Below are positions 6,184 to 58,809 of a stretch of 64,000 nucleotides of DNA, piece after piece. The notes under the pieces were generated by a model. The model did not search any database. It worked only from the letters and a program-made list of their open reading frames with translations, and was not told the origin of the DNA. The translations under genes were made by a program, and so were the position numbers. Every line of letters starts with the position of its first letter. Position 1 is the first letter of the stretch. This stretch comes from Candidatus Omnitrophota bacterium (GTDB lineage Bacteria > Omnitrophota > Gorgyraeia > B26-G9): positions 30,951 to 94,950 of the forward strand of contig JACQZH010000007.1 in NCBI GenBank assembly GCA_016213925.1. Direction: 5' to 3'.

Positions 6184-6648
6184 TCATTGATAAGTTTCCG
6201 GGCGGCTGAATTTTTTCGCGAGAAAATCCGCGATGTCTTGAGCTTCATCCAGAGCAATCCAGGTAATTGCCTTTGCTTGTTCACGCAAGACAAGATTGTG
6301 CCATTGCGCTGCGGGTAATCTTAGAGAAGTGATTTTATCTAGAGGGTGGCATTCGGCGCATTTCTGCTTAAAAAGCTGTTCCGTATAATAAGCGTGAGTG
6401 TTGTTTATGTGAATTTTTATTTTGTCGGCATCTTTTTGGGAAAATCCATTTTTGTTTTTTCTGCGCATCCAATCTACTGTTTTATTCCAGCCGGTAGTTG
6501 TTTTTTTAATAACAAAAATTCTCTCTAATTTGTGGCATTTACCGCAAGTGTTTTCAAAGAGCGGAAAATTTTTATCCGCGTTTTTTGCTCCTGTGAGCAG
6601 GACAGAGAAGCAGAGAATGCTGATAATAAGAAGGTAAAATGGCTTCAT
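6184..6648 (-). CDS. Diheme c-type cytochrome with signal peptide.
   Basis: Two CxxCH motifs (CGKCH, CAECH) and an N-terminal hydrophobic signal. Confidence 0.6.
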   Translation of the reverse strand: MKPFYLLIISILCFSVLLTGAKNADKNFPLFENTCGKCHKLERIFVIKKTTTGWNKTVDWMRRKNKNGFSQKDADKIKIHINNTHAYYTEQLFKQKCAECHPLDKITSLRLPAAQWHNLVLREQAKAITWIALDEAQDIADFLAKKFSRPETYQ

Positions 6649-6649
6649 T

Positions 6650-9610
6650 TTAATTTAATATAAATCCTTGATTGCCGCGCAAGATAAATCTTTTTACAGC
6701 ATGCCTGGTTTTATCCGCAGTATCTGTTCCGGTTAAAAAAAACGTAAAAATTACGGTGTCTGCCATTTCTTGTGCCTGCGGATTGGTATAAGAAATAATA
6801 TCGTAATTAGGAAACTGAACCGCCGTGTCTTGCGGGGAAAAGGAGTAAGAAAATTTCTCGTTATTGACCTCTAGAATCCCCTCATCCATTATCATCCCCG
6901 GCATAATCACGGTATAATAAACCTTAGCGTGGCGTAAGGGAGTTTTTATTGCGCCCTTTATCCTTAAAATGTCAGTATAATTTATTGAGAATCGCGCGGG
7001 CAAGTTAAGTTCGAGAATGTCATTTGGCGCGGAAGGCTCAACAGCATAAACAAAATATTTTCCGTCTCTAGTGCCGGCAAAATCGCCTTTTTTGTCCTTA
7101 TAACGGCAATTTCCTTCAACAGTATAAACTCCGGGTTCTTGTATTGGTATTTCCGCGCCTTCAGCAGCGGACATTTTTGCCAGGCCTATTTTATTTGTGA
7201 TGCCTTTGAATTCATATTGTTTTCCGCCGGGTGTAGTTATTTTTTTTAAACATTTAACATTAGCGATAGGAGGAAAAATCATTGCTCCGGCGCTTAAAAT
7301 ATCGCCGGTTTCAAAAATCATTCCGGCCAAAGGCGTGCCGGCATCAAAAAGATAATGCTTGCGGCCGTTAATCTCGAAAATCGGTTCAGCTAGAGGCGCG
7401 GATACTCTATTAGCAAAAGAACCTTTTGGGATAACCACGCCCATAGAGGCATAGATTCCATATAAATTAATTCCTTTTTTTAGATCACGATAGACAACAC
7501 CGCCCAAAAATTCATAAATATCCTGCGGCAAATCCCCGTTATAACTGTTGTTGATTTGCTCTCCGGCAAAGTTTCCGCCGCTTTGCCAATACGTGTCTCC
7601 CATAGGATGAGTGTCTTGGCTGACCATAAATCTGGCAGTAAGGCCGGGGCGGATTGCGCTCATATAGGCATAGGAGTGTTTGTCTAAGAATTCAGGATAT
7701 CCTTGCGGCTGGTATCCGTTTGTTGTTGTGGAAAAAGGAGCGATTCCTTTTGTTATTCCCGGGAATAGATTTTCTTTACAGCGCATTGTCAGGATAGGAC
7801 GAATGCCATTGTCTCCGGAGAAAGTATTTGCGATATAGAGAATATCGCCGGAATAATATGGAAAAGGGAACAGGGTACAGCAGGTGTAATTATTAGACAT
7901 AGGATTGTTGACCGTCATGAGTTGCCCTTCATAATTGCTATTATCCCTTGGCCCGATATCAGCGTGTATATGGGTGGAAGGGGACGCGCCATGCACGATG
8001 AGCGGTGAGTTTTTGGGAGCAACAACAGAACCGCTTTTTTGGCTGCCCATCCAAAAATTACCCTGGCTATCCGTATAGAACGCTGTAATTGTGGAAAGAT
8101 ATTCTCCTGGGCAGTCAAAAATCATTTTTTCAAATTTTTCTTTCGGGTAAAAGTACCCGTAACGGTTAGCTGCTCCTTCGATAACAACTTTTTTTATATC
8201 CTGCTTGCTGGAATTTCTATAAAAGGCAATATCTACTTTTACCTTGGCTGGGCAAGGCGGATGGATGATGACCGACGGAGGATATCCATCGCCCACTTCA
8301 AACGGAGTGCCTGGCTTTACGCTGGTGGCAAAAGTTAAGCGGTTCGCAACCCACACTTCGTATGTTCCGCCGCCGGTATATGTATTGCCCCAAACATCAG
8401 AGATCCAGCCGGTTAATTCAATTGAGTATTTGCCTTGCAAGGAAAACTGATAGCCGAACTTATCGGAATTTGAAGAAGCCCCGGTCGTAGATTGGGATTG
8501 AAATTTTTCTGTGCCGAGAATATCTTTTGTCCCGTCAGGTTTTGTGACAACAACCGAAAGCTCGCCGGATTGATAATTTAAAGGAATAGGAGTTTGAAAA
8601 TCCCATTTTGATCCCTGCTCTAGTTTTAGAAGCGGTTTTGCGAACATAGTAGGGAAATCAGGTTCAAGGATATATTTTGTTGTTTCCTGAGGTGTTTTTA
8701 ACGGAGGAAGAATGAATTCAGCAGGGATAATATGCCGGGAATTAAATTGAAAATTATCCGCGTCTTCTTTCGCGACTACTCCTTGAGTGCCATTGCTGAA
8801 ATATTTTGTAAGCAGTGTCCAGATCATCTTTGGCATAACAGGATTGCCGACTTTGATTACCGGAAGGTACGAAGATGTCCTTAGAATTATAGATTGATCC
8901 CAGTCAGAATAAATAGACGATGTTTTAGCGTATAGAGGCAAAAAGTTTACCCGATGAAAATAGCGGTGTTTTTTACAGAGGGCGGTAATTTGAAAGCGGT
9001 AATACCCTTCGGGAAAATCGGTTTTTATAATATCCTGGAACTTAAAATTAGCCTGCAGTTCTTCAGCGTTGATTTTTAAATTTGATTTTGGCGCAAAAGC
9101 ATATTTATAAAATGGCGCAGAATTGCTGTATCCTGAAAACCGGTTTTCAGGGGCTAAAGAATCGATATATTCGACAAATTTTAAATCCTCATATTCTGTC
9201 GCGCTAAAGTCGTAGTTTTCAATGGGCAGTCCCGAGGGGGTTAATACTGTGGAATTATAGTTATTTGTGAATTGATGATAACGGCCTTGTTTATCAAAAA
9301 TTCTTTCCGCGCGTAAAAGGATATAAATGCCGTCAAGCTCCTTGATGACTTCAATGGCCTGCCTGGATTTTACTTGTAAGCGTACCTGTATTTCGATATT
9401 ATCATTAAAATTAAAATCGTTTTTGTTTATCGAGGTTTCAAAGCTTAATTCGCCATCGCCAAGAATTTTTTCCGAAAAATCAAAACAAACGGGATCAGCG
9501 AATAAGAATACAGGAGAGCTAATCAAGGCAAAACAGAGGACAGGAAAAACAAAAACCGTTAGAAAAAAGTTTTTTTTGATAAGCATGGCAATCTTTCTTA
9601 ATTTCCGCAA
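6650..9610 (-). CDS. Large (986 aa) secreted or membrane-anchored protein of unknown function, co-oriented with and abutting the diheme cytochrome c.
   Basis: Long intact ORF, N-terminal TM/signal, no recognisable catalytic motif. A 1-nt gap to the downstream cytochrome gene implies an operon. Confidence 0.55.
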   Translation of the reverse strand: MRKLRKIAMLIKKNFFLTVFVFPVLCFALISSPVFLFADPVCFDFSEKILGDGELSFETSINKNDFNFNDNIEIQVRLQVKSRQAIEVIKELDGIYILLRAERIFDKQGRYHQFTNNYNSTVLTPSGLPIENYDFSATEYEDLKFVEYIDSLAPENRFSGYSNSAPFYKYAFAPKSNLKINAEELQANFKFQDIIKTDFPEGYYRFQITALCKKHRYFHRVNFLPLYAKTSSIYSDWDQSIILRTSSYLPVIKVGNPVMPKMIWTLLTKYFSNGTQGVVAKEDADNFQFNSRHIIPAEFILPPLKTPQETTKYILEPDFPTMFAKPLLKLEQGSKWDFQTPIPLNYQSGELSVVVTKPDGTKDILGTEKFQSQSTTGASSNSDKFGYQFSLQGKYSIELTGWISDVWGNTYTGGGTYEVWVANRLTFATSVKPGTPFEVGDGYPPSVIIHPPCPAKVKVDIAFYRNSSKQDIKKVVIEGAANRYGYFYPKEKFEKMIFDCPGEYLSTITAFYTDSQGNFWMGSQKSGSVVAPKNSPLIVHGASPSTHIHADIGPRDNSNYEGQLMTVNNPMSNNYTCCTLFPFPYYSGDILYIANTFSGDNGIRPILTMRCKENLFPGITKGIAPFSTTTNGYQPQGYPEFLDKHSYAYMSAIRPGLTARFMVSQDTHPMGDTYWQSGGNFAGEQINNSYNGDLPQDIYEFLGGVVYRDLKKGINLYGIYASMGVVIPKGSFANRVSAPLAEPIFEINGRKHYLFDAGTPLAGMIFETGDILSAGAMIFPPIANVKCLKKITTPGGKQYEFKGITNKIGLAKMSAAEGAEIPIQEPGVYTVEGNCRYKDKKGDFAGTRDGKYFVYAVEPSAPNDILELNLPARFSINYTDILRIKGAIKTPLRHAKVYYTVIMPGMIMDEGILEVNNEKFSYSFSPQDTAVQFPNYDIISYTNPQAQEMADTVIFTFFLTGTDTADKTRHAVKRFILRGNQGFILN

Positions 9611-10176: not shown

Positions 10177-10266
10177 GGAGAGTTGGCAGAGCGGCCGAAT
10201 GCGGCGGTCTCGAAAACCGTTATCCGGGTAACTGGATCAGGGGTTCGAATCCTCTACTCTCCGCCA
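10177..10266 (+). tRNA. tRNA-Ser (anticodon CGA), class II with long variable arm, CCA encoded.
   Basis: Acceptor GGAGAGU/ACUCUCC, anticodon loop CUCGAAA, long variable arm, T-loop UUCGAAU, discriminator G + CCA. Confidence 0.85.
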
Positions 10267-10645
10267 TTTTTACCGACAAGGTAAAAATGAAGGATGCCGA
10301 GAAGGCCGAAGCGAGCCGGCAAGGCGAGCCGGCCGCAGCGGCGACGCCATAAATTTTTTGGCAAAAATGGCGTTTCAATATGCTTAACGCATATTGAAAG
10401 TATCCTTTTGCGGGGAAAACAGCTAAAAGTAAACTTTTTCCTGTTTCCCCGCAATTACGTCTACAGCGGCCGGGCAATCCGAGCTCGCAAGCAAGCTCTT
10501 CTTGTCCCTGCCTACATTACGATTACAAGCGTGCTCAAATAAGTTTCTTAGTGATTAGGTTTGAAGTGAAGTCAAAATTATCTTGAGATTGGAACAGTCT
10601 GGGAGTATTATTAATAATATAAAGACTTGTAAACAGTGAGGAAAC

Positions 10646-11506
10646 ATGAATAAAGAAATAACCGCGACTAAAATAGCAATTTTCAGAAAACGCGAAATCC
10701 GCAGGACTATTCATAAGGATGAATGGTGGTTTTCAGTGATTGATATAGTAGAAGCGCTTACGGGCACTAATAGGGGTAGAAAATATTGGAGCGATCTTAA
10801 GAAAAAGCTTATTGAAGAAGGGTATAGTGAAGTGTCCGAAAAAATCGGACAGTTGAAAATGATAGCTCCAGCTGGGAAATTAAGGCTTACGGATTGCGCT
10901 AATACAGAAACAATGTTTCGCATAGTACAGTCTATCCCATCTCCGAAAGCCGAACCTTTTAAGCGGTGGTTGGCTCGGGTCGGTTACGAGCGAATTCAGG
11001 AAATTGAGCACCCAGAGCTTGCCACAAAAAGGACAAGGGCGTTATATAAGGCTAAAGGGTATAGCGATGAATGGATCGAGAAACGAATGCGTGGAATTGC
11101 TATCCGTGAGGAGTTAACTGAGCAGTGGCAGAAGCGCGGCATTAAAGAGAAAAAGGGATACGAAATATTGACCGCTGACATATCGAAAGCGACATTTGGC
11201 ATGACCCCATTGGCTTACAAGAAACACAAGGGGCTTAAGCGTGAAAATCTGCGGGATCACATGACTGATCTTGAACTTATCTTTTCAATGCTTGGTGAGG
11301 CATCAACGAAAGAGATCGCCATTAATAAAGATGCTCAAGGGTTTGGGGAGAACAAACAGGCGGCGTTTGAAGGCGGCGCTGTGGCTGGCAACGCAAGAAA
11401 AGAGCTTGAGCGCAAAAGCGGCAAAAGAGTTATTAGCAAAGAAAATTATAAAAGATTACCGCAGAATAAGAAGCTGTTAAGAGTGGATAGTAGTTTCGAC
11501 AAGTAG
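10646..11506 (+). CDS. Bro-N domain / DinD-like (DNA-damage-inducible protein D family, phage antirepressor-like) protein.
   Basis: N-terminal IRRTIHKDEWWFSVIDIVEAL ... YWSDL resembles the Bro-N/DinD pattern; the central KHKGLKRENLRDHMTDLEL resembles DinD. Confidence 0.55.
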   Translation: MNKEITATKIAIFRKREIRRTIHKDEWWFSVIDIVEALTGTNRGRKYWSDLKKKLIEEGYSEVSEKIGQLKMIAPAGKLRLTDCANTETMFRIVQSIPSPKAEPFKRWLARVGYERIQEIEHPELATKRTRALYKAKGYSDEWIEKRMRGIAIREELTEQWQKRGIKEKKGYEILTADISKATFGMTPLAYKKHKGLKRENLRDHMTDLELIFSMLGEASTKEIAINKDAQGFGENKQAAFEGGAVAGNARKELERKSGKRVISKENYKRLPQNKKLLRVDSSFDK

Positions 11507-11586
11507 TTGAATTTCTTGGAGAGGCATGGCTCGCCTTCTGTCCGCGGCTACCTGCCATTTTATGCAAAAGGTGGACTATTTAAAGT

Positions 11587-11865
11587 ATGTTTAATGAAAA
11601 AAGAAAAATTGTCTTAATTTCAAGCGTACTGATTCTTTTTTTAAGTGGATTTTTATATTTATACAAAAACTGCTTTGATGTTATCTGTTTCTATTTCGCA
11701 ATCTTTGCCGGTGTAGGAATATTTTTAGGGGCTATTGATTATCTGAAATTTAAATTTGTGAAATTTATTCAAATCGGAATCCTGGTGGTGTTCATAATAT
11801 GGTCGATTCTATTTTTTGTTATGTTAATACTAATGGCCTCCGGAAGAATAGGCCATCCAAGTTGA
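11587..11865 (+). CDS. Small integral membrane protein (about 3 TM), hypothetical.
   Basis: Hydrophobic ORF directly upstream of and co-oriented with a larger membrane protein. Confidence 0.4.
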   Translation: MFNEKRKIVLISSVLILFLSGFLYLYKNCFDVICFYFAIFAGVGIFLGAIDYLKFKFVKFIQIGILVVFIIWSILFFVMLILMASGRIGHPS

Positions 11866-11886
11866 GAGCACAATGATGGATAATAT

Positions 11887-13167
11887 ATGAAATTTTTTAA
11901 AAAATATTTTGACAGTTATTGGATTCCTTTTGCCTTCTATATTATTGTTTTGCTGGCGGGAATGTTATGCGGCATGGTTTTTCGTTCGATGTACTTGGTA
12001 TTAGTAATGCAAGCGGTAAATATGTTCTTTTTTGCGGGAATGATCGCTGCTTCCATCTGGAACTTTAGAAAGAAACGCTGGAAAAAAGGGATTTCTAATT
12101 TAATCTTCCCTCTTTTAAACTTTGGCATGATTTTTATAGTTTTGTCTATGTTTGGGCATAGTGGAGATAAATTTGCCGATAACCTGGTAATCCCGGATAA
12201 TATAGATATAGCTGAGCCGGGAAATTGGAACAACTCACCTGAAAGCAAAGAGCAGGATGCATATCAAAAAGATATCTTGGATGCGCTTAACATTGCCGGA
12301 AGTGATGATGTATTGATTAGGGCTAATCTTCCTTCATTAATTAAACTAAACCAGAATGCTCCGGATATTTTTAAACGTTATCTTGCGGTTAGCCCTGCCT
12401 GGAGGCTATATCAGGAGCGCGGGAAATTATTCGCGACGCGAAGATGGATGATAGGTTCTCAATGGCGTTATACGTTACACGGTTATTATACGCGTTTTGA
12501 ATTATTCGATAAGGATATGCCTGATTTTCAAAATAGATTTTGTATTGGATTTTCAGGGAAACCCTGGCATGAAGCGTCAAGAACAACTTTTCTTAAAGAA
12601 GGACAATCAGCAAAATTGATATTATCAAAAGGCAATCAGATGAATGAAAGCCACTGTGTGATTAATGCCGATAGCTTATTTGTAGAAGTGTTTGAACAAT
12701 CTAAATTCAAAGAACGCCGTTTAACCAAGTCAGCTTTAGCTTATCTTGAAAAAGAATTGAACCCGTTGTTAGAACAGCCAACCTGGGGCAAAATCAAGGA
12801 GCTTATTCCCGCTAATAGCATTAAAAACTCAGAGCCGTCAATTAATCTTTGGGGCTCAGGAGGAATATATGATTCTGAGATCTGGGTTAATCCGGGAGAG
12901 CCGGGGATGATCTATCTTAAGGCATTTGAAGTTACTAAAAATACCCGTTTATCTGCTGAAGAGTTAAAGGAAAGTTCTAACGAATGGATCGGATGGTCTG
13001 AAGATTATAATGAAGTATTCTTTTCAAACACCAATTTTATGATTTATGAAGGAGACTGGAGTAAGCCTTACGCGGCGCGTTTTGAAGTATGGTTTGTTCC
13101 TGATTCCAAAGCCCCAGAAAGAAAGCTTATGGAAAGAGTATTCAAGATTGAAGGATGGCAAAGATAA
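11887..13167 (+). CDS. Membrane-anchored hypothetical protein (N-terminal TM helices + about 330-aa soluble domain).
   Basis: Intact 426-aa ORF with no recognised motifs. Confidence 0.5.
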   Translation: MKFFKKYFDSYWIPFAFYIIVLLAGMLCGMVFRSMYLVLVMQAVNMFFFAGMIAASIWNFRKKRWKKGISNLIFPLLNFGMIFIVLSMFGHSGDKFADNLVIPDNIDIAEPGNWNNSPESKEQDAYQKDILDALNIAGSDDVLIRANLPSLIKLNQNAPDIFKRYLAVSPAWRLYQERGKLFATRRWMIGSQWRYTLHGYYTRFELFDKDMPDFQNRFCIGFSGKPWHEASRTTFLKEGQSAKLILSKGNQMNESHCVINADSLFVEVFEQSKFKERRLTKSALAYLEKELNPLLEQPTWGKIKELIPANSIKNSEPSINLWGSGGIYDSEIWVNPGEPGMIYLKAFEVTKNTRLSAEELKESSNEWIGWSEDYNEVFFSNTNFMIYEGDWSKPYAARFEVWFVPDSKAPERKLMERVFKIEGWQR

Positions 13168-13605
13168 GTTTGTTTTAATTGGGATTATAAAACGCGGTAT
13201 AGTTAATGATTACGGCGGCTAACAGGCAGCCGCAGGCTGTGCCGGGCTAAAAATATCTTGACAAAATTTGTAGATATTGCAGAATAATAGTAAGCATGGA
13301 AGTTGCTGTAATTTGTTGAGATTTGGCATAAGTTAAGATAAACCCGAAATTCGCAATAGAAATTATCTATCGACTAAATCCGGCCGCACGAAAAAGTGTG
13401 GGCAGATTTAGTTATTGCAAAATCCAGGATAATTATGATGATATCAGGGGATGATTTAATCATTCTCTTTTTTTTATACCCCGCGGCCTAAACACAAAAT
13501 ATTTATTGCCTTGAGTCCAAATTATGCTATATAATGCAAAGCGTGCAAAGGAAAGCAGATTTGTCCTAAAACTACTATTCAGACATAGAGACGGAGGCGG
13601 TTTCA

Positions 13606-13794
13606 ATGAATATCATAAAGCAATTAGAACTATACCGACTCGAAAACAGGATTACGCAGGTTGATTTGGCAAATGAATTAAAAGTTGCCTTTTCAACAGT
13701 CAGCCGCTGGCTCAACGGTAAAACCACGCCGAATAAGATTCAACAGTATCATATAGAAAAGTTTTTAACTCGGCATAAAAAGGATAGCAAATGA
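13606..13794 (+). CDS. XRE-family (Cro/C1-type) helix-turn-helix transcriptional regulator, 62 aa.
   Basis: ITQVDLANELKVAFSTVSRWLNG is a canonical HTH_XRE. Its stop overlaps the start of the next gene (ATGA). Confidence 0.7.
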   Translation: MNIIKQLELYRLENRITQVDLANELKVAFSTVSRWLNGKTTPNKIQQYHIEKFLTRHKKDSK

Positions 13795-15169
13795 AATTTA
13801 CAGAAAGCGAAATCGTAGAACTCAAAACATCGACATCAGAACTCAAAGAGGCGATCATTTCTTTGGGAGCCATGTTGAACAAGCATGGCAAGGGCACAGT
13901 TTATTTCGGCATCGGTGATGATGGTGCCGTTTTGGGACAACAGATCGGCAAATCAACCTTAAAAGATGTTTCAAAAGCCATCAGTGATTGGATTGAGCCT
14001 AAGATTTATCCGGATATTCAGGCCAAGAAAATACAAGGCAAGGACTGCATTGTTGTTAAAGCCAGCGGACATGATGTCGTGTATTCGGCCCGCGGCAGTA
14101 CTATCTACGTATGGGAGAGGAAGACAAGAAGCTTTCGGTAGATGAATTGAGGCATTTGGTTGAAAAGAAAAATAACTATGCCTATTCCTGGGGTGCCGAG
14201 CTTTCTGATTTTTCGCTGTCCAAGGTTAGTGCCGCGACCGTTAAGAAGTTCGTTGAGAAAGGACGCAAAGCCGGGAGGATTGAATATTCTTATGATTCGG
14301 CGCGCAATGTCCTTAATAAAATTCACCTGTTTAAAGGCAAAAAATTGCTTAACGCGGGACGGGCGCTCTTTTGTGAAGACAGCGGTGTTGAAGTTCAAGC
14401 GGCTGTCTTTGCCGGAAAAGATAAAATGACGTTCGTCGATATTCAGAGTTTTCGCGGCCCTTTTTTTGATTTGATCGAACGGTGCGAAGTTTACGCCAAA
14501 GAGCACATTAACTGGTGCGCCGATCTTTCCGGGAGCACAAGGATCGAGATTCCGGAGGTTCCTGTCCGTGCTATGAAGGAAGCCATTACAAATTCCCTCT
14601 GCCACAGGGATTTTAACAACCCCAAAAGTAATGAAGTCGCCATCTATCGAGACAGGATCGAAATTTACAACCCCGGGCAGTTTCTTTTTGACCATGATCC
14701 GGATGAGTTCATCGCAGGCCATGGGAAAAGCTATCCTAGAAATCCACTGATTGCGGAAGCTTTTTATCTGGCTAAGGATATTGAGCGGTGAGGCTCAGGG
14801 TTGCGGCGTATCAAGGAAGAATGCGATGCCGCGGGCGTGAAAGTTGCGTTTGAGAAAGTATCTGCCGGGTTTCAGGTAACGTTTTATCGGTTGGAGGGGA
14901 AAATCGTTCCTAAAGAAGCAGAGAAAAGTAGGGAGAAAAGTAGGGAGAAAAGTAGGGAGAAAAGTAGGGAGAAAAGTAGGGAGAAAAGTAGGGAGAAAAT
15001 TCTTAAGCTTGTGATCAGTAATCCGTCGATTACCGCGCAGGAGCTTGCAGACAGCGTAGGCTTGAGCGTTAAGGGGATAGAGAAGGCGATAAGAGTACTT
15101 AAAGAACAGGGTTTATTAAAACGTGTCGGGCCCGATAAGGGCGGGCATTGGGAAGTGGCAAAAGGTTAA
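13791..15169 (+). pseudogene. Schlafen/AlbA_2 + HATPase_c_4 + C-terminal winged-HTH protein ('RecG-like putative DNA-binding' family), disrupted by a frameshift near 14100-14115 and an in-frame TGA at 14789-14791.
   Basis: Three consecutive ORFs (13791-14141, 14111-14791, 14801-15169) together reconstitute the family architecture. The TGA falls in a DIER-TGA-GSGLRRI motif where family members have a conserved Trp (IERWGSG), consistent with a TGG to TGA mutation. Confidence 0.6.
14921..15000 (+). repeat. 12-bp tandem repeat (agtagggagaaa, about 6.6 copies) encoding (SREK)n in the linker before the winged-HTH.
   Basis: Perfect tandem copies read directly from the sequence. Confidence 0.9.
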
Positions 15170-15580
15170 TCATGGGAACGACAACATTTTTTCTTAGACT
15201 TAATGATTGCGCAAAGCCGTTGCACAAAATGAGCAAGAAAGAATTGGCAGAATTAAATAATGTCACCCCTTACGCTGATAAAGCTTATAAAGGGGGCTGG
15301 CTGGTTTCACCGGAATTTACACCGATCGAGTCTCTTCTGCTAAGAGCTGAACTGTTACAACGCAAGAGAGTTTCTCATCTTGAAATATCTTCCAAGCTGT
15401 TGTAAAAGCAGTTTTGAGAAAAAAGATATAATACTTTACAATTAAAACAGTTGTAAATGCGAGCGCATTCCCAAGTTGACAACTACACGTTATTATGTTG
15501 ACAATAGACACGGATTATGTTTACATTATGTTAAGAATAAGTTGACAAAAACAAAAAAGGATATTTAAGAGAGTATTGTT

Positions 15581-16648
15581 ATGGGGCTGACAAAAGAGAC
15601 TGGACAAAAACTAAAAGAGTATATATTAAATAATGTGGATAAGTATCCTAGTCAAATTGTTGCGAAAGCTGCTAAGGAATTTGGAATATCAAGACAAGCG
15701 GTTCATCGGCATATTCGGCAGTTGAAAAATAACAGCGCGCTTGTGTCTGCGGGCAAAGGAAAAAGCGTGCAATATTCCTTGAAAATAATACAGCATACTT
15801 TCCAACTGAAGGTATTTCCTGGGATGAGTGAAGATCAGGTTTGGAAGGAAAAAATATTTCCCAGCCTGCCAAAATTAAATAAAAATATTTTAGATATTTG
15901 TCAATATGGTTTTACGGAAATATTTAATAATGTAATAGACCATTCAGAATCAGAAGAGGCTATAGTTGTTGTGACGGAAGACATAACGTCAATTCTTTTG
16001 TATGTTTCGGATAGCGGAGTGGGGATATTTAATAAAATTCAACAAGCGTTAAAATTAGAAGATCCGCAGCATGCTATTTTAGAATTGGCAAAAGGGAAAT
16101 TTACTACGGATCCGGAGCAACATAGCGGGGAGGGAATATTTTTCACCTCCAGAATTTTTGATAAGTTTGAAATTCTTTCGCAAAATTTATATTTTTATGG
16201 ATATAAGGATGAAGATTGGATTCTTGAATCAGAAAACGGTTTAAGTAAAGGCACCGCGGTATTTATGAAAATTCGCAGGGATTCAAAAACAACAATTAAG
16301 GAAATATTTGATAAATATACTTCAGGGGAAAGCGATTTTGGTTTTTCAAAAACAATTATACCGGTGAGCTTAATGCGGCATGAAGGGCAAGAGCTTGTTT
16401 CTCGTTCGCAGGCAAAACGTTTAATTACAAGATTCGATAGATTTAAAGAAGTAGTGCTGGATTTTCAGGGTGTGACAATGATTGGACAGGCTTTTGCGGA
16501 TGAACTATTCCGGGTTTTTGGAAAACAGCATCCGGAAGTCAGCATTGTCCCGATAAACACAACGGAAGATATTAAAAATATTATCCTGCATGTTAGAGCT
16601 GAATCCGGCGCAACTGATCTGCAAAAAGAGAATAGCGGCGAAAACTAA
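15581..16648 (+). CDS. Fused HTH + GHKL ATPase (RsbW-like anti-sigma kinase fold) + C-terminal STAS-like (DUF4325) protein.
   Basis: N-terminal HTH (GISRQAVHRHIRQL), GHKL N-box (FTEIFNNVIDHS) and G1 (DSGVGIF), then a C-terminal LDFQGV ... AFADELF block typical of DUF4325/STAS-like domains. Confidence 0.6.
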   Translation: MGLTKETGQKLKEYILNNVDKYPSQIVAKAAKEFGISRQAVHRHIRQLKNNSALVSAGKGKSVQYSLKIIQHTFQLKVFPGMSEDQVWKEKIFPSLPKLNKNILDICQYGFTEIFNNVIDHSESEEAIVVVTEDITSILLYVSDSGVGIFNKIQQALKLEDPQHAILELAKGKFTTDPEQHSGEGIFFTSRIFDKFEILSQNLYFYGYKDEDWILESENGLSKGTAVFMKIRRDSKTTIKEIFDKYTSGESDFGFSKTIIPVSLMRHEGQELVSRSQAKRLITRFDRFKEVVLDFQGVTMIGQAFADELFRVFGKQHPEVSIVPINTTEDIKNIILHVRAESGATDLQKENSGEN

Positions 16649-16708: not shown

Positions 16709-17014
16709 TTGGAGCGTATTCATAAATTTTCAAGAAGGAGAAGGAGGATAGTCGTGAAACCGTTAAAAAAAAAGAAAGAAAAAGCAAAAAGAAAAATCAC
16801 TTCGGAGCAAGCTTTCGCTTCTTTGATTGGGCTGCTTCTGACGCTGATTATAATTGCGGTACTTTTATACTCGCTGGCGAATAATAATAAAAACACGGGC
16901 TCTCAACAGGCAGAAGACGCGCCTGCTAATCCAAAAGCAACGCTGGACAAGGCAAAAGAGGCAGTGGGAAACATCAATAAACAGCAGCAAAAGCGTATGC
17001 AAGAGTTGGAATAA
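16709..17014 (+). CDS. Small basic membrane protein, hypothetical.
   Basis: Lys/Arg-rich N-terminus followed by one TM helix. Confidence 0.3.
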   Translation: MERIHKFSRRRRRIVVKPLKKKKEKAKRKITSEQAFASLIGLLLTLIIIAVLLYSLANNNKNTGSQQAEDAPANPKATLDKAKEAVGNINKQQQKRMQELE

Positions 17015-17157
17015 GGCAATAAATTTATTGACCAGGGGGCAGAAAAGGAGTAAGCTATCATTGTGCTTCAGGGATGAATAACGCGATGAGGCAAAAAGCA
17101 GATGCTTTAACATGGTATTAAAACAACCGGATTTTTGCGGTTGTTTTTTCTTTTTTC

Positions 17158-19533
17158 GTGGGGAGTTCAATGTCAAAACAAAAAAATAAAGACCAAAGTT
17201 TTTTACTGTGTGAAAAGATAAAGAAACTGACAACACTGCTTACGCAGGAAAAACAAACGGAACAGGCATTAAGAAGCGGGATTAAGGCCTATATTCAAAG
17301 AGAGAAAGTTTTTCGGCAGTTGTTTGATAATATTAAAACAGCTGTTGCTGTTTATAAGGTTGTTGATAACGGCAAGGATTTTGTTTTTGCGGATTTTAAT
17401 CATGCGGCGGAAAAAATTGATAAAATAAAAAAAGAACAGCTTATCGGGAAAAAAGTCAGCAGGGTTTTTCCCGGGGTAAAGGAATTCGGGTTGTTCGATG
17501 TGTTTAAAAGAGTATGGAAAACCGGTAAGCCAGAGCATCACCCTGTGGGTATTTATAAAGATAAAAGAATCCAGGGGTGGAGGGAAAACTATGTGTATAA
17601 AATCCCTTCCGGAGAAATAATCGCTGTATACGAAGACGCTACCGCGCGCAAACAAGCGGAACAGCAGATGAAAGAGCTAGCAAGATTCCCTAAAGAAAAT
17701 CCGAACTTGGTTTTAAGGGTAACCTTTCAAGGCGAGGTTATTTTTAAGAATAAAGCAGTAGACAGTGTTTTAAAGAGTTTAAGGGTCAATCAAAAAGATA
17801 TTAAAGAAATTCTTCCTAAGAATCTAGCCGCGATAATACGCAAAGCGCGAAAAAATAAAAGGCAATCAGTGAATTCAGAGGTTTCGATAAAAGGCAAAAC
17901 ATATTTTTACGCGATATCTGTGGGAGCGCAAGATGCCAATATCTACGGGTTTGATATTACAGAGCGCAAAAAGACAGAAAAAGAATTATATCACAACTCA
18001 AAACAATTACAGGTCCTCAATGAAAATCTGGCAGAGGGCATGGTGTACCAGATCAACAGCGGCAAAGACGGTTTATCGAGAAAATTTTCCTATTTGAGCC
18101 CGGCAGTGAAAAAGCTTCACGGGTTAGAGCCTAGAGAAGTTATTGCAAATCCGCGTATATTATATGAGCAGGTAATAGAACCAGACCGTTCGTTTCTAGC
18201 AAAAAAAGAAAAGCATGCGTTTGAAACGATGAGTAAGCTTGAAGCTGAAGTTAGGATGCGGCTGCCTTCCGGAGATATCCGCTGGCGTCAATTTGTATCA
18301 ACGCCCAGGATTATGGAGGGTGTTGTTTTATGGGATGGGATTGAACTGGACATCACAGAGCGCAAGCAGGCGGAATTAAAATATAAAACTATTTTAGATA
18401 CCGCGATTGATTGTTTTTATATTATTAACGCGCGGCAAGGCAACATCTTGGAGGTTAATGATGCCTACTGTTCTTTGATTGGATATAGCCGTGACGAATT
18501 GCTTAAGATGAGCTTAAAAGATATTGAATATAAAGAAAACCCTAAGAAAATAGCGCGGCATATGCGGTACATAATCAAGAAAGGCGCGGATCATTTTGAA
18601 ACTCGTCACAGGGCCAAAGAAGGAAGGATTATTGATCTTGAAACGAGTGTTAATTATATGAAAGAAAACAAAAAGTTTTTTGTGTTTATGCATGATATTA
18701 CCGAGCGCAAGAAATATGAGAATGACCTTAAAAAAGCTAAGGAAGAGATAGAAAAATGGAATAAAGAGCTGGAAAAAAGAGTGCGAGAAAAAGCGTGTGC
18801 TTTAAAAGAGGCGCAGGAACAGCTTTTTCAGGCGGATAAACTTAGCAGTATCGGGCAGTTGGGCGCGGGTATCGCGCATGAGTTAAACAGCCCGCTTGCC
18901 GGTTTGCTAAGCTTAATCAGGGCTTATAAAAAGAAAAAAAATCCGGATACGGATGAATACGCGGAATTAGCGGAAATGGAATCAGCCTGCGAATACATGG
19001 CAAGAATAGTTAGAGACTTAAATTTATTTTCCCGGCAAACTGTTGGAGAAACGGAAAAAGCGAACTTAAACGAGCTTATTGAGGCTACAATGTCTTTTAG
19101 CATGCATCAGCTTAAAGCTAAAAATATCATAATAATAAAAAACTATAGCCAAGAACTGGCTGTTTTCTTGGCGGACAAGCGCCGTGTTCAGCAGGTAATT
19201 ATTAACCTGTTGGCAAATGCCTGCGATGCTTTATCCGAGCGCGGTATTTTAACAATTACTACCGGAAATATTAATTTAAATGGGCAAGTGTTTGTTGAAT
19301 TGGAGGTTGCGGATAATGGCTGCGGCATAAAAAAAACGGATATAAAGAAAATTTTTGAGCCTTTTTTTACTACAAAACGCCCGGGGAAAGGCGTGGGGCT
19401 TGGATTAGCTGTTGTTTACAGCATTGTTGAGAAGCACAAGGGCAGGATTTTTGTCAAAAGCAAGGAAGGCGCGGGAACAACATTTACGGTGCAGCTTCCG
19501 GCGCTAGTAGAAACAAGGACTGCTGAAAAATAA
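17158..19533 (+). CDS. PAS/PAC-domain sensor histidine kinase.
   Basis: H-box AGIAHELNSPL, N-box NLLANACDAL, G-boxes DNGCGI and GVGLGLAVV. Multiple PAS-like segments upstream. Confidence 0.85.
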   Translation: MGSSMSKQKNKDQSFLLCEKIKKLTTLLTQEKQTEQALRSGIKAYIQREKVFRQLFDNIKTAVAVYKVVDNGKDFVFADFNHAAEKIDKIKKEQLIGKKVSRVFPGVKEFGLFDVFKRVWKTGKPEHHPVGIYKDKRIQGWRENYVYKIPSGEIIAVYEDATARKQAEQQMKELARFPKENPNLVLRVTFQGEVIFKNKAVDSVLKSLRVNQKDIKEILPKNLAAIIRKARKNKRQSVNSEVSIKGKTYFYAISVGAQDANIYGFDITERKKTEKELYHNSKQLQVLNENLAEGMVYQINSGKDGLSRKFSYLSPAVKKLHGLEPREVIANPRILYEQVIEPDRSFLAKKEKHAFETMSKLEAEVRMRLPSGDIRWRQFVSTPRIMEGVVLWDGIELDITERKQAELKYKTILDTAIDCFYIINARQGNILEVNDAYCSLIGYSRDELLKMSLKDIEYKENPKKIARHMRYIIKKGADHFETRHRAKEGRIIDLETSVNYMKENKKFFVFMHDITERKKYENDLKKAKEEIEKWNKELEKRVREKACALKEAQEQLFQADKLSSIGQLGAGIAHELNSPLAGLLSLIRAYKKKKNPDTDEYAELAEMESACEYMARIVRDLNLFSRQTVGETEKANLNELIEATMSFSMHQLKAKNIIIIKNYSQELAVFLADKRRVQQVIINLLANACDALSERGILTITTGNINLNGQVFVELEVADNGCGIKKTDIKKIFEPFFTTKRPGKGVGLGLAVVYSIVEKHKGRIFVKSKEGAGTTFTVQLPALVETRTAEK

Positions 19534-19549
19534 GCTGGGGCGGAAAAAG

Positions 19550-19918
19550 ATGAATAAAATACTTGTTGTAGATGATGAAAAATTGATTTGCATAAGTATA
19601 AAAAGAGAACTGGAGGATCTAGGGTATAAAGTGCAGATTGCTCTGAACGGAGCAGATGCTATTGATTGCGTGGAAAATAACGAGATTGAGATGGCATTTG
19701 TTGATTTGATTCTGCCGGATATAAACGGGATGAATGTGTGTAAAAGGATAAAACAATTAAACAGCAATATAAAAGTTGTGCTTATGTCCGGTTATACGGA
19801 TAAACTTATGGATTTAAAAAAAGAATTCAGCCTTTTGAAAGGAGCAAAGGATATGCTGGAAAAGCCGTTTGGCGGTGACGATATTTTAAAGCAGGTAACC
19901 AGTTTTTTTGTTAGTTGA
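19550..19918 (+). CDS. Single-domain response regulator (CheY-like receiver).
   Basis: VVDDE, VDLILPD and KPF motifs. Sits 17 nt downstream of the kinase. Confidence 0.8.
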   Translation: MNKILVVDDEKLICISIKRELEDLGYKVQIALNGADAIDCVENNEIEMAFVDLILPDINGMNVCKRIKQLNSNIKVVLMSGYTDKLMDLKKEFSLLKGAKDMLEKPFGGDDILKQVTSFFVS

Positions 19919-56382: not shown

Positions 56383-58809
56383 TTAGATGCTTTGTCCAAT
56401 CAGGGTTTGCTGAGTATTCAAATGCTGTTTAGTTATAGTAATATTAGCTGGAACGGCTTTTTGCAAAACAGCTGCGGGATTAGGCTGTTCAGCGGCAAAA
56501 GGTAAATAAATCGTAAAACATGACCCTTTCCCTTCTCCCTCGCTTGTTACTTCCATATATCCGTTCATTTTTTCAAGCAAAGGAAGCACTGAAGCTAAGC
56601 CGATTGCAGAGCCTTCGATCTGGGGGTTAGTTTCGGATTGGCCTAAACGGTCAAAGCGTTGCCCGACGCGGTAGAGATTTTCTTTGGCAATGCCAATACC
56701 GGTATCGGAAATACTGACGCTGATTACTTGATTATTATTCCGTGTTGAGGCCTCAAGCGCGGCTTTAACAGTGATTGTTCCTCCTTGAGGAGAATATTTA
56801 ACCGCGTTGCTTAACAGATTAAAAATAATGCGCCTAAACGCGTCTTCGTTAACAAAACCGGTTAGAGATTGTTTGATGTCAATATCCAAACTGAAATTTT
56901 TGGCAGACGCATATTCGATATGAGGCCGGTTCTGTTCGACGCATTCACTAAGCAACTGTGAAATATTTCCGGATTTTACGTTAAGCTGTGAAGTTGAGGC
57001 GTCCGGGGTATTTAATTTGCTGAAAAACGCATCATTAAGCTTTGATATCTTTGGCGATTCGTTTACTATGATCGTAATGTATTGTTTGATAGTTTCCGGC
57101 AGGGAGCTTGAAATAGATTCATCGCTTATAAGCGCTTCAAAAGCATTCACCGCATCTTGAAATTCAATAAAGGCTTTTTTGTATTCCGCGGCAAAATCAT
57201 AGAATATGCTTGAAGTTTGCCTGATCAGAAATTCTAATTTTTCTTCGCTGATTATCCTTAAAAGGTTTTCAAGTTGAGCGGTTGAAGTGAGGTATTCTTT
57301 TGCCGCGTGATATAAAGCTTCTTCCAAGAGCCCGATATTACGGTTTGTTTTAAAAAACGGCTTAGTTTGCGCGTGCAGCGCTTCAAGGATACGAAATGAG
57401 GATGCCTTAAGCAGATTTTTTTGCAATATCTGCCATACGGATAAAATTTCTTCTTCCGAAGCTGATTCGTTTTGCAGGTGCTCCGGAAGCAGTGCGATTG
57501 TTTCCTGCGCAGCAGCGGATTCTTTTAATTCAGGAGAATCTTTTGCCGGAGATTCTTCAGAAAGCTCCTTAAGTTTTTGTTCGAAATCATGGATCAACTG
57601 TTTAAGATTTAATAAAAAAGAACGCTCCTGTTTGGCAGCGTGAAATAGCCCGAACATCGGCAGTAAGATACTGATTTTTTTTTCAAAGCTTTTAATGGAG
57701 TTTTCTAAAATAACAGCTTTTTCCTTGATTAAAACGCAGGCAGTTTTGACTTTTTCAAGTTCAGGATTTTCCGCGAGGTTTTCGGTGGTAATTTTTCTAT
57801 TTGTCCTGTCGGCAAACCCGGCAGTAACAATTAACGGGTTTTTTGTATCATGCAGGAACGCTTCTGCTTCAAATAATGTGCTGATAGCGTGCAGTTGTCT
57901 TAATTTATCGTCTAAGCCCATAGTTGAATAAGCAAGCTCCTTTTTTGCGCGTAAAAGCTGAAGCGCAAGGCCGGTTTGATCGGAAATTGCCTGCAAGAGA
58001 ATAAGTTTTTCTTTCTTTGCCTGTTCGTTTTCAAACAAGGCTTCTCCTGTTTTCCAATTGTTAATAAGTATTTGCGCTATGGGGGAGTCGTTTTTATCCA
58101 GAACCGCAAAATGAAGAGATTCGTTTACGCGGTTAAGCCAGTCCGGGCGTATTTTCCCGACAAGCCAGATCCCCAATTTTGCGGGATAAACGCAGAAGGG
58201 AATAGAAAAATCGATAAAAGAAAAAATCGCTTTGCGGAAAAATGAGGATGACTCAAACCGGTATAAAAATATGTCCTTAAAAAGCCAGGGAGTGTATACA
58301 TCGGTGCTTTCGCTTCTTTTTTTAATGTGAAGATAAGGCGATTCTCTGCGGGCATTTTTTAAGTTATTAATTTTTTCGTCATTATCCGGCAAAGGGCTCC
58401 AGCTTACCTGCCAGCGCCTTCCTCCTTTCATGCCGTGGCGCAGAACTGTGCGTAAAGAAAATCCATTCCCCATGGGTTCGTGTTTTTTTACGATATAAAA
58501 GGCAACTCCCTTAAAACCTAATATCCGTGTGATATAATCTTTAACCAGGTCGGCAACCTGTTCTTCATTCTCAGCCTGAAGCAGCCAACCGCTTAATTGG
58601 GAAAGATGTTCATACTGGTTTTTTGACGATGGAATCCTACTGCTGTAAATAGAGGCAAAGGTATCTTTATACGTATTTGTCTTCAGGTTTAATTCCGGGG
58701 AAAGGCAGTATTTTTGCCAAGAGGCGTTTGCTCCGGCAAAACAATCCGCTGCGATTGACTGAACAATAAAGGCGCTGACAACAAATAAAGTTAAAATTTT
58801 TATTTTCAT
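56383..58809 (-). CDS. Sensor histidine kinase with a large N-terminal extracytoplasmic/sensor region.
   Basis: H-box LHDTKNPL, N-box FNLLSNAVKYS, G1 ISDTGIGI, and a signal peptide. Confidence 0.8.
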   Translation of the reverse strand: MKIKILTLFVVSAFIVQSIAADCFAGANASWQKYCLSPELNLKTNTYKDTFASIYSSRIPSSKNQYEHLSQLSGWLLQAENEEQVADLVKDYITRILGFKGVAFYIVKKHEPMGNGFSLRTVLRHGMKGGRRWQVSWSPLPDNDEKINNLKNARRESPYLHIKKRSESTDVYTPWLFKDIFLYRFESSSFFRKAIFSFIDFSIPFCVYPAKLGIWLVGKIRPDWLNRVNESLHFAVLDKNDSPIAQILINNWKTGEALFENEQAKKEKLILLQAISDQTGLALQLLRAKKELAYSTMGLDDKLRQLHAISTLFEAEAFLHDTKNPLIVTAGFADRTNRKITTENLAENPELEKVKTACVLIKEKAVILENSIKSFEKKISILLPMFGLFHAAKQERSFLLNLKQLIHDFEQKLKELSEESPAKDSPELKESAAAQETIALLPEHLQNESASEEEILSVWQILQKNLLKASSFRILEALHAQTKPFFKTNRNIGLLEEALYHAAKEYLTSTAQLENLLRIISEEKLEFLIRQTSSIFYDFAAEYKKAFIEFQDAVNAFEALISDESISSSLPETIKQYITIIVNESPKISKLNDAFFSKLNTPDASTSQLNVKSGNISQLLSECVEQNRPHIEYASAKNFSLDIDIKQSLTGFVNEDAFRRIIFNLLSNAVKYSPQGGTITVKAALEASTRNNNQVISVSISDTGIGIAKENLYRVGQRFDRLGQSETNPQIEGSAIGLASVLPLLEKMNGYMEVTSEGEGKGSCFTIYLPFAAEQPNPAAVLQKAVPANITITKQHLNTQQTLIGQSI

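Follow-up and report, generated by a model that had tools for sequence, protein, structure and literature searches.

A gene that encodes, in a single polypeptide, modules that normally work as separate proteins raises the question of what such a fusion can do. In the SpoIIAB-SpoIIAA and RsbW-RsbV pairs the kinase and its antagonist are separate, whereas the protein studied here fuses the two and adds a DNA-binding domain. The gene lies in a 64,000-nucleotide stretch of a Candidatus Omnitrophota genome (the window; table 1). At 100% identity, its product matches an NCBI "DUF4325 domain-containing protein" from a Candidatus Omnitrophica MAG, and an exact-sequence look-up of the protein returned no record. 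A previous interpretation made from the nucleotides by themselves (the sequence-only reading) described an HTH, an RsbW-like GHKL kinase with intact N-box and G1 box and a STAS-like DUF4325 domain, fused in an architecture of undescribed function. The domain assignment is borne out by profile, structure and conservation, and the description of the function agrees with the literature searched, in which DUF4325 is scarcely mentioned.

The Pfam searches upheld the proposed domains to different degrees. DUF4325 (PF14213) matched residues 277-331 well above its cut-off (E=1.3e-15, 57.3 bits vs. 23), HATPase_c_2 (PF13581) matched residues 102-198 slightly below it (E=7.8e-6, 26.4 bits vs. 27.4) and was passed by several close homologues (e.g., 37.7 bits), and HTH_11 together with other HTH models matched residues 27-60 weakly (E=5e-4 to 1e-2). 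PADLOC matched the HTH region alone, to CARF/CasR models, and an NCBIfam search of the protein gave nothing meaningful. The key residues of the N-box (E113, N117, H121), the G1 box (D144, G146, G148) and the G2 box (H181, G183, G185) are invariant in 135/135 non-redundant relatives, including the two boxes that had been called intact. In the structure model (pTM 0.68, moderate) the closest structures are anti-sigma factors with SpoIIAB nearest, and a superposition matches the C-terminal domain to RsbV, RsbS and SpoIIAA. The lid (FTTxP) and the G2 box (xSGxG) presumably also resemble those of SpoIIAB. Fold and motifs support membership in the GHKL superfamily, and conservation and fold show the central domain to be a SpoIIAB/RsbW-type module with a fully intact ATP site. 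The predicted confidence is high at the wHTH-GHKL junction (pLDDT ~95) and lower in the GHKL-STAS linker (~61-66), which is compatible with a mobile STAS domain.

Table 1. Positions of the wHTH-GHKL-STAS gene, its domains and motifs, and associated upstream features in the window.
Feature	Position	Strand	Description
tRNA-Ser	10177-10266		upstream of the gene
Operator-like array	15476..15549	+	five direct-repeat boxes, read from sequence; repeat families D1, D4
Box 1	15476-15483	+	TTGACAAC
Box 2	15498-15505	+	TTGACAAT
Box 3	15520-15527	+	TTTACATT
Box 4	15531-15538	+	TTAAGAAT, degenerate
Box 5	15542-15549	+	TTGACAAA
Candidate sigma-70-like promoter	15498..15527	+	over two adjacent boxes; -35 TTGACA, 18-nt spacer, -10 TACATT
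Second candidate promoter	15476-15505	+	TTGACA, 18 nt, GACAAT
wHTH-GHKL-STAS(DUF4325) CDS	15581..16648	+	ATG-to-stop ORF, 355 aa
Winged helix-turn-helix domain	15581..15814	+	residues 1-78
Recognition helix within wHTH			~residues 36-50, ISRQAVHRHIRQL
SpoIIAB/RsbW-like GHKL ATP-binding (Ser-kinase-type) domain	15830..16330	+	residues 84-250
N-box	15917-15943	+	E113-H121
G1 box	16010-16024	+	D144-G148
G2 box	16121-16135	+	H181-G185
GHKL lid motif			KGKFTTDP
STAS-fold DUF4325 domain	16340..16615	+	residues 254-345
S274-R275-S276	16400-16408	+	invariant, in STAS domain
Q303	16487-16489	+	canonical phospho-serine position

The proposal of RsbW/RsbV-type partner switching stands in part: the GHKL kinase fold and the STAS-fold antagonist are present but the acceptor serine is not. 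In the characterized relatives SpoIIAA, RsbV, CapS and VapS the acceptor is a serine of alpha-2 (for CapS and VapS, PMC13373217). VapS, itself a member of Pfam DUF4325 (PF14213, E=1.3e-17), was the sole match, and a weak one, when the STAS domain sequence was searched against the PDB. Its acceptor S48 (SEQRES index 66) aligns with Q303 in a profile alignment, and CapS S54 (DSSF vs. GQAF) and SpoIIAA S58 match the same position by eye. Position 303 is a Gln in 131 of 133 family members and a Pro or His in the other two, never Ser or Thr, and the phosphorylatable Ser/Thr at the N-terminus of alpha-2 that defines an RsbW/RsbV module is absent in all 133. The C-terminal domain is a STAS fold from the Pfam family of the phospho-regulated VapS in which the acceptor Ser is replaced by Gln. 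Since this near-invariant Gln takes the place of the alpha-2 N-terminal Ser, a canonical phospho-switch should not be able to operate, and as judged from the aligned sequences a classical phospho-partner switch at the Q303 site is excluded. The S274-R275-S276 motif of the same domain is invariant in at least 134 of 135 members.

The sequence-only reading placed the fused version on an island-like segment. The window protein is no peculiarity of that segment but a member of a large, widespread and uncharacterized bacterial/prophage family with at least 7999 full-length homologues and 797 representative clusters (50% identity) at E<=1e-30. The architecture is constant (~345 aa), the gene is always a solo gene, and the family is present in many phyla and on 48 viral contigs (IMG/VR); one homologue (L047) is from the cultured Granulicella mallensis X5P3. 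The island-like character of the segment itself is weakly supported overall: a tRNA-Ser gene, a Bro-N gene and a broken AlbA_2/HATPase_c_4/HTH gene lie upstream, but the window around the gene shows neither an integrase nor a G+C anomaly. The gene downstream is a small membrane-protein ORF. All-against-all clustering of 615 neighbor ORFs from 80 genomes identified no conserved partner gene beyond closely related genomes, and Pfam and PADLOC scans of 241 neighbors in 80 genomes found no family in more than 4 of the 241. A linked sigma factor or PP2C phosphatase gene was found neither in the window flanks nor among the recurrent neighbors of the 80 genomes, and no PIN (VapC) match occurred among the window neighbors or the recurrent neighbor families. 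Chromosomal neighbors are mostly housekeeping genes, with a few defence-type genes. The contexts of P0093 are from one organism only.

The most informative feature of the locus, a conserved and phased array of boxes upstream of the gene, was overlooked in the sequence-only reading. The five direct-repeat boxes in the window (consensus a.GTTGACAATa) start 22, 22, 11 and 11 nt apart. Two candidate promoters were found as consensus-scan matches; their overlap with the boxes is read from the sequence and their activity is inferred. Homologues in many phyla have the same boxes upstream of them, spaced 21-22 nt. Within 130 nt upstream, 47 of 63 homologous loci contain at least two boxes and 35 of 63 at least three, the density is 17.8 boxes per kb compared with 0.87 per kb elsewhere, adjacent boxes are 21 or 22 nt apart in 64 of 92 cases, and the median distance from the beginning of the last box to the start codon is 20 nt. 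Positions outside the search pattern are conserved as well (G at -1 in 68%, T at +7 in 79%). A metagenome scan with a three-box pattern returned 120 stretches, 31 of them directly upstream of a homologue. The sole other three-box cluster within the window (58028-58058) was rejected as a regulon member: it is degenerate, and a histidine-kinase gene on the opposite strand contains it. Likewise, the "other" arrays seen across the 17-kb loci turned out to be either degenerate matches within genes or the upstream array on its reverse strand. The phased, operator-like array ahead of the gene suggests that its transcription is autoregulated. The operator can be recognized alongside the gene across at least 12 phyla and into prophages, and the best explanation is that operator and gene form a cassette that travels as a whole from one genome or prophage to another.

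The boxes co-vary with the recognition helix of the protein. At least two boxes are present in 55 of the 66 loci with an [S/T]RQ recognition helix compared with 2 of the 39 loci with other helices (Fisher p=4e-16, in a test that treats the loci as phylogenetically independent). Several members with other helices carry different phased repeats instead, among them AATTCGTT (five copies, 22 nt; EAQSV subfamily, L055), TAATTAAC (three copies, 22 nt) and TATAGTTA (two copies, 21 nt). This co-variation offers a ready-made candidate for a specificity code.

Direct-repeat boxes with ~11- or 22-nt phasing are also used by OmpR/PhoB-type winged-helix regulators and plasmid iteron-binding Rep proteins, whose boxes overlap the -35 region and which bind them head-to-tail along a single face of the DNA. 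These families are unrelated to the window protein and are regulated by receiver-domain phosphorylation or by the Rep dimer/monomer equilibrium. The reading we tentatively favor, at somewhat less than an even chance, is that the protein is a self-contained, autorepressed, ATP-dependent one-protein switch. The N-terminal wHTH would bind the direct-repeat boxes, as their co-conservation and co-variation suggest, at intervals of one or two helical turns across the -35, -10 and leader regions of its own gene. Given this phasing, several protomers would therefore align head-to-tail along a single DNA face, repressing their own promoter. The STAS domain may serve the GHKL domain as a pseudo-substrate or as a partner that it cannot phosphorylate. 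The ATP/ADP state, or a ligand sensed where the GHKL and STAS domains meet, would select between two states: one in which the STAS domain is docked by its Q303 face on the kinase cleft, and one in which this face is free for inter-protomer contacts that make DNA binding cooperative. The result would be a partner switch that works without phosphorylation at the classical site. Its immediate output would be its own expression together with that of anything co-transcribed, and the kinase may have an additional substrate, either cellular or on a phage. As self-regulation alone brings no evident benefit, the model is short of an output.

Comparison with characterized systems is best read as placing the family as related to, yet distinct from, CapK/CapS, VapKSC and Rv1364c. 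VapK, VapS and VapC form a toxin-antitoxin-kinase system (Chambers et al., EMBO J 2026, PMC13373217). VapS is a DUF4325 STAS protein from the same Pfam family as the C-terminal domain of the window protein and is partnered with a GHKL kinase, which in the window protein sits in cis. VapK carries a GHKL domain of the anti-sigma-factor type, as does the window protein (hhalign similarity marginal, E=1e-3), and the regulated interaction surface of VapKSC is the STAS face around the alpha-2 N-terminus. However, VapK (STAS-GHKL), VapS and the PIN toxin VapC are three proteins from one operon, whereas the family fuses kinase and DUF4325 behind a wHTH, has Q303 in place of VapS S48 and, in the window, lacks a linked PIN gene. 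CapK/CapS also combine HTH, STAS and GHKL modules, and CapS is an autoregulating DNA-binding repressor in which STAS-face-dependent oligomerization governs DNA binding (PMC13373217), a precedent for the switch favored above. The similarity detected by hhalign is to CapK (E=9.7e-5, 37% identity) over only 52 columns from the N-box to G1 (NVxDHSES...DSGxGI), with none to CapS. CapK is an HTH-STAS-GHKL protein with capS (STAS-wHTH) directly downstream, in contrast to the single wHTH-GHKL-STAS protein; the CapS repressor is a separate protein with a phospho-Ser54 where the window protein has Gln, its sites are palindromic rather than direct repeats, and capKS precedes an immune operon in 348 of 443 cases whereas the family has no conserved neighbor. 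SpoIIAB-SpoIIAA and RsbW-RsbV have an alpha-2 N-terminal Ser and a linked sigma factor and/or PP2C phosphatase gene, all missing here. Rv1364c from Mycobacterium tuberculosis, a fused sensor-PP2C-GHKL-antagonist protein, is a precedent for a kinase followed by a STAS antagonist in one polypeptide, but it contains PAS and PP2C domains and binds SigF whereas the window protein has a wHTH instead. GHKL-kinase/STAS pairs outside sigma control have been recognized only recently, in CapKS and VapKSC (2026; PMC13373217), where they sense damage and regulate immune operons and toxin-antitoxin systems, and the family would represent a third and much simpler layout, with DNA-binding domain, kinase and STAS partner in one protein and the phospho-acceptor lost. 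As a compact and tractable system of one protein and one 80-bp DNA fragment, it makes approachable the questions of how STAS-GHKL docking transduces a signal without phosphorylation and what role hundreds of annotated "DUF4325 domain-containing proteins" play.

Two alternatives concern the boxes and the phospho-acceptor. Because the boxes resemble the -35 and -10 hexamers of sigma-70, part of the signal could be promoter and not operator. In the extreme case the boxes would be no more than strong tandem promoters of sigma-70 type (TTGACA / TACAAT) that were inherited together with the gene and that the protein does not bind, with the HTH acting elsewhere or off DNA. The box core is identical to the -35 consensus, TACAAT is similar to that of the -10 and a 21-22-nt spacing yields promoter spacers of 17-18 nt, but three to six copies that reach into the leader, conservation of flanking positions beyond the hexamers, retention of the boxes in GC-rich cyanobacteria and Proteobacteria and in Patescibacteria, and the sharp tie to the recognition helix, with other phased repeats accompanying other helices, make this explanation very unlikely. 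A true single-polypeptide phospho-partner switch similar to Rv1364c would require the GHKL domain to phosphorylate, in cis or in trans, S274 or S276 at the N-terminus of alpha-1 in the STAS domain fused to it, releasing or altering DNA binding. Within the STAS fold, the N-terminus of alpha-1 would share a face with the classical site. The invariant serines beside that site could be phospho-acceptors and the module a phospho-switch after all. The intact kinase site, SpoIIAB as the closest structure and the autophosphorylation by Rv1364c of its own fused antagonist domain (PMC7693655) agree with this, whereas the acceptor in SpoIIAA, RsbV, CapS and VapS is the alpha-2 serine that the family replaces with Gln and no PP2C phosphatase gene is linked in the window or the scanned neighbors. 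The SRS motif may equally be structural or nucleic-acid-binding because the invariant R275 and R280 flank it. Overall, such a phospho-switch is unlikely.

Other alternatives look for the output beyond the gene itself. A subset of the family is found at prophage accessory-gene sites, and viral copies are located near terminase, integrase and repressor genes. In at least six viral loci (L100, L104, L105, L110, L113, and L117) the order is phrog_36 regulator, homologue, terS, terL and portal, and the regulator contains Sigma70_r4 in L113 and L117. A sigma-70-region-4-type gene precedes the homologue in a subset of the phage loci only. The protein might be an anti-sigma factor whose SpoIIAB-like domain sequesters a sigma factor or sigma-like activator, with the fused STAS domain as a built-in antagonist and, in prophages, the late activator encoded directly upstream as the target. 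Its structural neighbors and this gene order fit such a role; however, the site before terS is a general accessory-gene insertion hotspot and the adjacency may therefore be positional, most chromosomal copies (the window included) have no sigma gene nearby, and the wHTH and the operator array are left unexplained, which makes the explanation decidedly improbable. A kinase of CapK/VapK type that senses stress or phage, and that might serve as a one-gene determinant of defence or superinfection exclusion, would use the cis STAS and GHKL domains as a ligand site (e.g., for ssDNA) and phosphorylate an unlinked host or phage protein while HTH and boxes merely hold expression low. The non-substrate STAS and GHKL domains of CapK/VapK form an ssDNA-binding groove (PMC13373217), and the N-box-to-G1 resemblance to CapK (E=1e-4), the accessory positions on viral contigs and the few defence-type neighbors are in line with it. 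Against it stand the different domain order (wHTH-GHKL-STAS vs. HTH-STAS-GHKL), the lack of a CapS/VapS-like or PIN gene among the neighbors and of an effector domain, the housekeeping character of most chromosomal neighbors, and a tblastn search of curated phage and plasmid collections that gave no match; we consider it improbable. With PADLOC matches confined to the HTH region, mostly housekeeping chromosomal neighbors and a family subset at prophage accessory sites, a defence role is neither shown nor excluded.

An extension of the favored one-protein switch would make the gene a mobile, phosphorylation-independent sensor-effector cassette. At rest, protomers would be polymerized head-to-tail on the boxes, each GHKL domain touching the STAS domain of the next protomer. 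Stress or infection, signalled by a change in ATP/ADP or by a nucleic-acid ligand like that of CapK, would break the polymer, de-repress the gene and free an active anti-sigma-type kinase to inactivate the late, sigma-like activators that (super)infecting phages encode, or some other target in the cell. This extension is speculative and has a small chance of being correct. If true, it would establish a new class of immunity or of lysis-timing control carried on prophages and chromosomes, as well as the first STAS module with a Gln replacing the phospho-serine. Among the longer family members, the one informative extra domain is an RHS-repeat N-terminal extension in a single protein, which may be a gene-calling read-through.

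The sequence-only reading proposed that an HTH, a GHKL ATPase and a STAS-like DUF4325 domain are combined in the product of a single ORF, and this part of the reading was borne out by Pfam (weakly for the HTH) and independently by structure prediction. The 355 amino acid target is identical to an NCBI MAG protein of Candidatus Omnitrophica bacterium that is annotated only as "DUF4325 domain-containing protein". The AlphaFold model (51 homologues as input, pLDDT 81.9, pTM 0.68) shows three helices and a beta-wing at the N-terminus, a central GHKL core of alpha/beta type whose lid (residues 175-183) is disordered, and, at the C-terminus, a small alpha/beta domain. The wHTH-GHKL junction is modelled with high confidence and the GHKL-STAS linker with low confidence, which is compatible with a mobile STAS domain.

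Features of the target gene and its surroundings in the window
Feature	Position	Strand	Remark
tRNA-Ser(CGA)	10177-10266
Bro-N gene	10646-11506
426-aa protein	11887-13167		N-terminal membrane region, no family match
XRE-type HTH gene, 62 aa	13606-13794
AlbA_2/Schlafen ORF	13791-14141	+
HATPase_c_4 ORF	14111-14791	+
wHTH ORF	14801-15169	+
Box 1, TTGACAAC	15476-15483		upstream of target start codon
Box 2, TTGACAAT	15498-15505		upstream of target start codon
Box 3, TTTACATT	15520-15527		upstream of target start codon
Box 4, TTAAGAAT	15531-15538		upstream of target start codon; degenerate
Box 5, TTGACAAA	15542-15549		upstream of target start codon
Target ORF, 355 aa	15581-16648	+	ORF call, ATG to stop
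HTH matches in target	residues 27-60		Pfam, several, weak
HATPase_c_2 in target	residues 102-198		Pfam E=7.8e-6, one bit below gathering score
DUF4325 in target	residues 277-331		Pfam E=1.3e-15
Small Lys-rich ORF, one transmembrane segment	ends 17014 (region 16709-17147)		directly downstream of target
Intrinsic-terminator-like hairpin	17120-17147		3' of small Lys-rich ORF
Multi-PAS histidine kinase, 791 aa	from 17158	+	AtoS/CckA-like catalytic core
Single-domain response regulator	19550-19918	+	after histidine kinase

A word-indexed search returned at least 7999 matches to the target, nearly all of them full-length (about 340-360 aa, 45-58% identity) and most either unnamed or named "anti-sigma regulatory factor" (JGI). 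phmmer, run exhaustively against 1.84 billion cluster representatives, yielded 797 clusters with E<=1e-30 and 1776 with E<=1e-10, nearly all of them equal in length and covered end to end. The 80 homologue-bearing genome loci span the Omnitrophota, Chloroflexota, Nitrospirota, Cyanobacteria, Acidobacteriota, Proteobacteria, Spirochaetes, Chlamydiota, Planctomycetota, and Patescibacteria. Among 135 non-redundant members the ATP-site residues E113, N117, H121, D144, G146, and G148, which confirm the claimed intact N-box and G1 box, are invariant, as are T175, H181, G183, and G185 of the same site and S274, R275, S276, R280, G302, and F305 of the STAS domain. The family, of which the target is an ordinary member, is under strong selection to keep all three domains together with a working nucleotide site. 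A literature search found no description of a wHTH-GHKL-DUF4325 family, which is an uncharacterised, widespread, mobile variant of GHKL/STAS signalling modules. In one relative (P0125, 684 aa) the complete unit is preceded by 328 additional N-terminal residues that match an RHS repeat (E=1.2e-5); either gene calling read through a stop here, or the extension hints at the unit serving as cargo of a polymorphic-toxin locus. The wHTH of the family weakly matches the DIP2311-like_C model.

The intact SpoIIAB-like ATP site is joined to a VapS-family STAS fold whose acceptor position is occupied by Gln. When PDB sequences were searched with a profile built from the C-terminal domain, VapS was a weak match (9Z7O, E=0.36); Pfam in turn assigns VapS to DUF4325 (E=1.3e-17), and VapS has been described as an antitoxin (Chambers et al., EMBO J 2026, PMC13373217). 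In the alignment, position 66 of the 9Z7O SEQRES, which is VapS Ser48 because the SEQRES index equals the residue number plus 18, pairs with profile position 52, corresponding to Q303 of the target. By eye, CapS Ser54 lies in the same register (GIVATDSSFPRE vs GVTMIGQAFADE), as does SpoIIAA Ser58. Position 303 is Gln in 131/133 members and Ser/Thr in none; the hallmark of an RsbV/SpoIIAA-type partner switch is therefore absent across the family. A classical phospho-switch at this position is excluded, and the interpretation given in the sequence-only reading is supported in part.

This loss of the phospho-acceptor is one of two unexpected traits of the family; the other, missed by the sequence-only reading, is an array of phased direct repeats, overlapping the putative promoter, that travels with the gene across phyla as an operator-like element. 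The five boxes of the target are spaced 22, 22, 11, and 11 nt start to start, and a like array precedes homologues of unrelated phyla, including those of GC-rich cyanobacteria and Proteobacteria and of Patescibacteria. Within 130 nt upstream of the homologue, 47/63 loci contain at least two boxes and 35/63 at least three, a density of 17.8 boxes per kb compared with 0.87 over the other 1.7 Mb. Neighbouring boxes are spaced 21 or 22 nt apart in 64/92 cases and mostly 11-12 or 43-44 nt in the rest, the median distance from the beginning of the last box to the start codon is 20 nt, and conservation of the consensus (a.GTTGACAATa) extends to positions outside the search pattern. In a reverse test, the exact three-box pattern, for which we estimate <1 match under uniform composition, was found in at least 120 stretches of the metagenome collection; among the 120 matches listed, a family member follows directly in 31, a contig end truncates 18, and the remainder consists mostly of long tandem satellites. 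On eleven metagenome contigs (L136, L146, L168, L177, L186, L198, L200, L205, L226, L244, and L246) a TTGACAAT-containing array is followed by an identical 67-aa coiled-coil ORF (LETDVRHTRMLIEKQ...) with no family member nearby; L136 carries a 21-nt tandem array (1259-1515, 12.2 copies, unit TTTGAGTCTATTGACAATCGG), and L168 and L226 a single three-box match each. These arrays could be centromere-like or iteron-like sites of a related DNA-binding protein.

The boxes co-vary with the recognition helix. Leaving out loci found via the box pattern itself, at least two TTGACAA-type boxes were present in 55/66 loci with an [S/T]-R-Q helix (ISRQAV in the window) and in 2/39 loci with any other helix (Fisher p=4e-16, uncorrected for phylogeny). 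Several members with other helices bear different repeats within 130 nt upstream, mostly at 21-22-nt (or 11-nt) phasing: AATTCGTT (five copies, 22 nt, helix EAQSV, L055), TTCGTTAT (four copies, irregular and mostly not 22 nt: 9, 13, 22; helix EAQSV, L048), TAATTAAC (three copies, 22 nt, helix KTSSA), TTACACAA (four copies, 11 and 21 nt, helix TRPYA), and TATAGTTA (two copies, 21 nt, helix SLNTV of a phage subfamily). The loci with such alternative boxes, AAATTTAC among them, are L055, L048, L090/L091, L080, and L081. Such co-variation would be expected of a wHTH that reads the boxes, and it suggests a helix-to-box specificity code. Autoregulation of the gene by its product is the functional reading that these comparisons best support: protomers would occupy the boxes head-to-tail along a single face of the DNA and repress transcription of their own gene, the STAS domain could use its Q303 face to contact either the GHKL cleft or a neighbouring protomer, and nucleotide state or a ligand would toggle between these partners and so alter the cooperativity of DNA binding.

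Several other explanations were weighed against autoregulation. In a consensus scan, pairs of neighbouring boxes match sigma-70-like promoters whose spacers are 17-18 nt long, and the array therefore spans the -35, the -10, and the leader; that the boxes are nothing but plain promoters is nevertheless very improbable, given that they change with the helix. For a phospho-switch, the sole candidate to replace the acceptor is the invariant S274-R275-S276 motif at the start of helix alpha-1; such a switch is considered unlikely. A role as CapK-like sensor kinase or defence gene is equally doubtful. CapK (HTH-STAS-GHKL) acts with a separate repressor, CapS (STAS-wHTH), both encoded in front of an immune operon, and VapK (STAS-GHKL) with VapS and VapC (PMC13373217). 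In hhalign the family alignment matched CapK (E=1e-4) and VapK (E=1e-3) over the N-box-to-G1 segment only (NVxDHSES...DxGxGI) and did not match CapS. The family differs from both systems in domain order and lacks their partner genes and acceptor Ser, which places the target outside CapKS and VapKSC; it is best described as a new architecture of the same parts. A precedent for such fusion is Rv1364c, a single polypeptide made up of a sensor, a PP2C, a GHKL, and an antagonist domain (PMC7693655).

The genomic context bears on the defence reading and on the quite improbable one of an anti-sigma factor directed at phage late activators. When ORFs were called at 80 loci and the five genes on each side were clustered, no neighbour cluster was common to homologues beyond near-identical genomes, and when the neighbours (124 downstream, 117 upstream) were scanned with Pfam and PADLOC, no family recurred in more than four loci. 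The homologue is therefore a solo gene. Most neighbours are housekeeping genes (e.g., tRNA synthetases, MoeA, oxidoreductases), and a few encode methylases, DpdF-like helicases or AbiEii-like ATPases. No family member is present in the curated collections of phages and plasmids, but 48 IMG/VR contigs carry one, with genes for both the small and the large terminase subunit, for integrases, and for repressors among the three on each side. In at least six gut-type phage loci (L100, L104, L105, L110, L113, and L117; homologue at about 8001-9030 in full-length loci) the order is phrog_36 regulator, homologue, terS, terL, portal, and the phrog_36 "transcriptional regulator" of L113 and L117 bears a Sigma70_r4/DUF1492-like domain. 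An anti-sigma-like kinase beside a sigma-like late activator may reflect functional pairing or a mere insertion hotspot.

The island-like setting claimed for the target is at best a decayed remnant. The tRNA-Ser, Bro-N, and XRE genes and a broken AlbA_2/HATPase_c_4/wHTH gene lie upstream, and 10177-13794 may represent the decayed remains of an integrated element that lacks an integrase; neither an integrase nor a compositional shift was found in the window. The three ORFs at 13791-15169 (+) look like one disrupted DIP2311-like family gene, either a pseudogene or a MAG assembly error: a frameshift separates the first two and an in-frame stop the last two, and within the wHTH ORF a 12-nt unit is perfectly repeated 6.6 times in tandem (14921-14999), which encodes (EKSR)n. 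Downstream, the small Lys-rich ORF, with a likely true start at GTG 16755 preceded by GAAGGAGG, may be co-transcribed with the target and is not conserved beside homologues. The genes at 17158-19918 (+) are an ordinary two-component pair, unlinked to homologues in other genomes. A 986-aa ORF (6650-9610, -), without a Pfam match at E<=1e-3, adjoins a c-type-cytochrome-like ORF (6184-6648).
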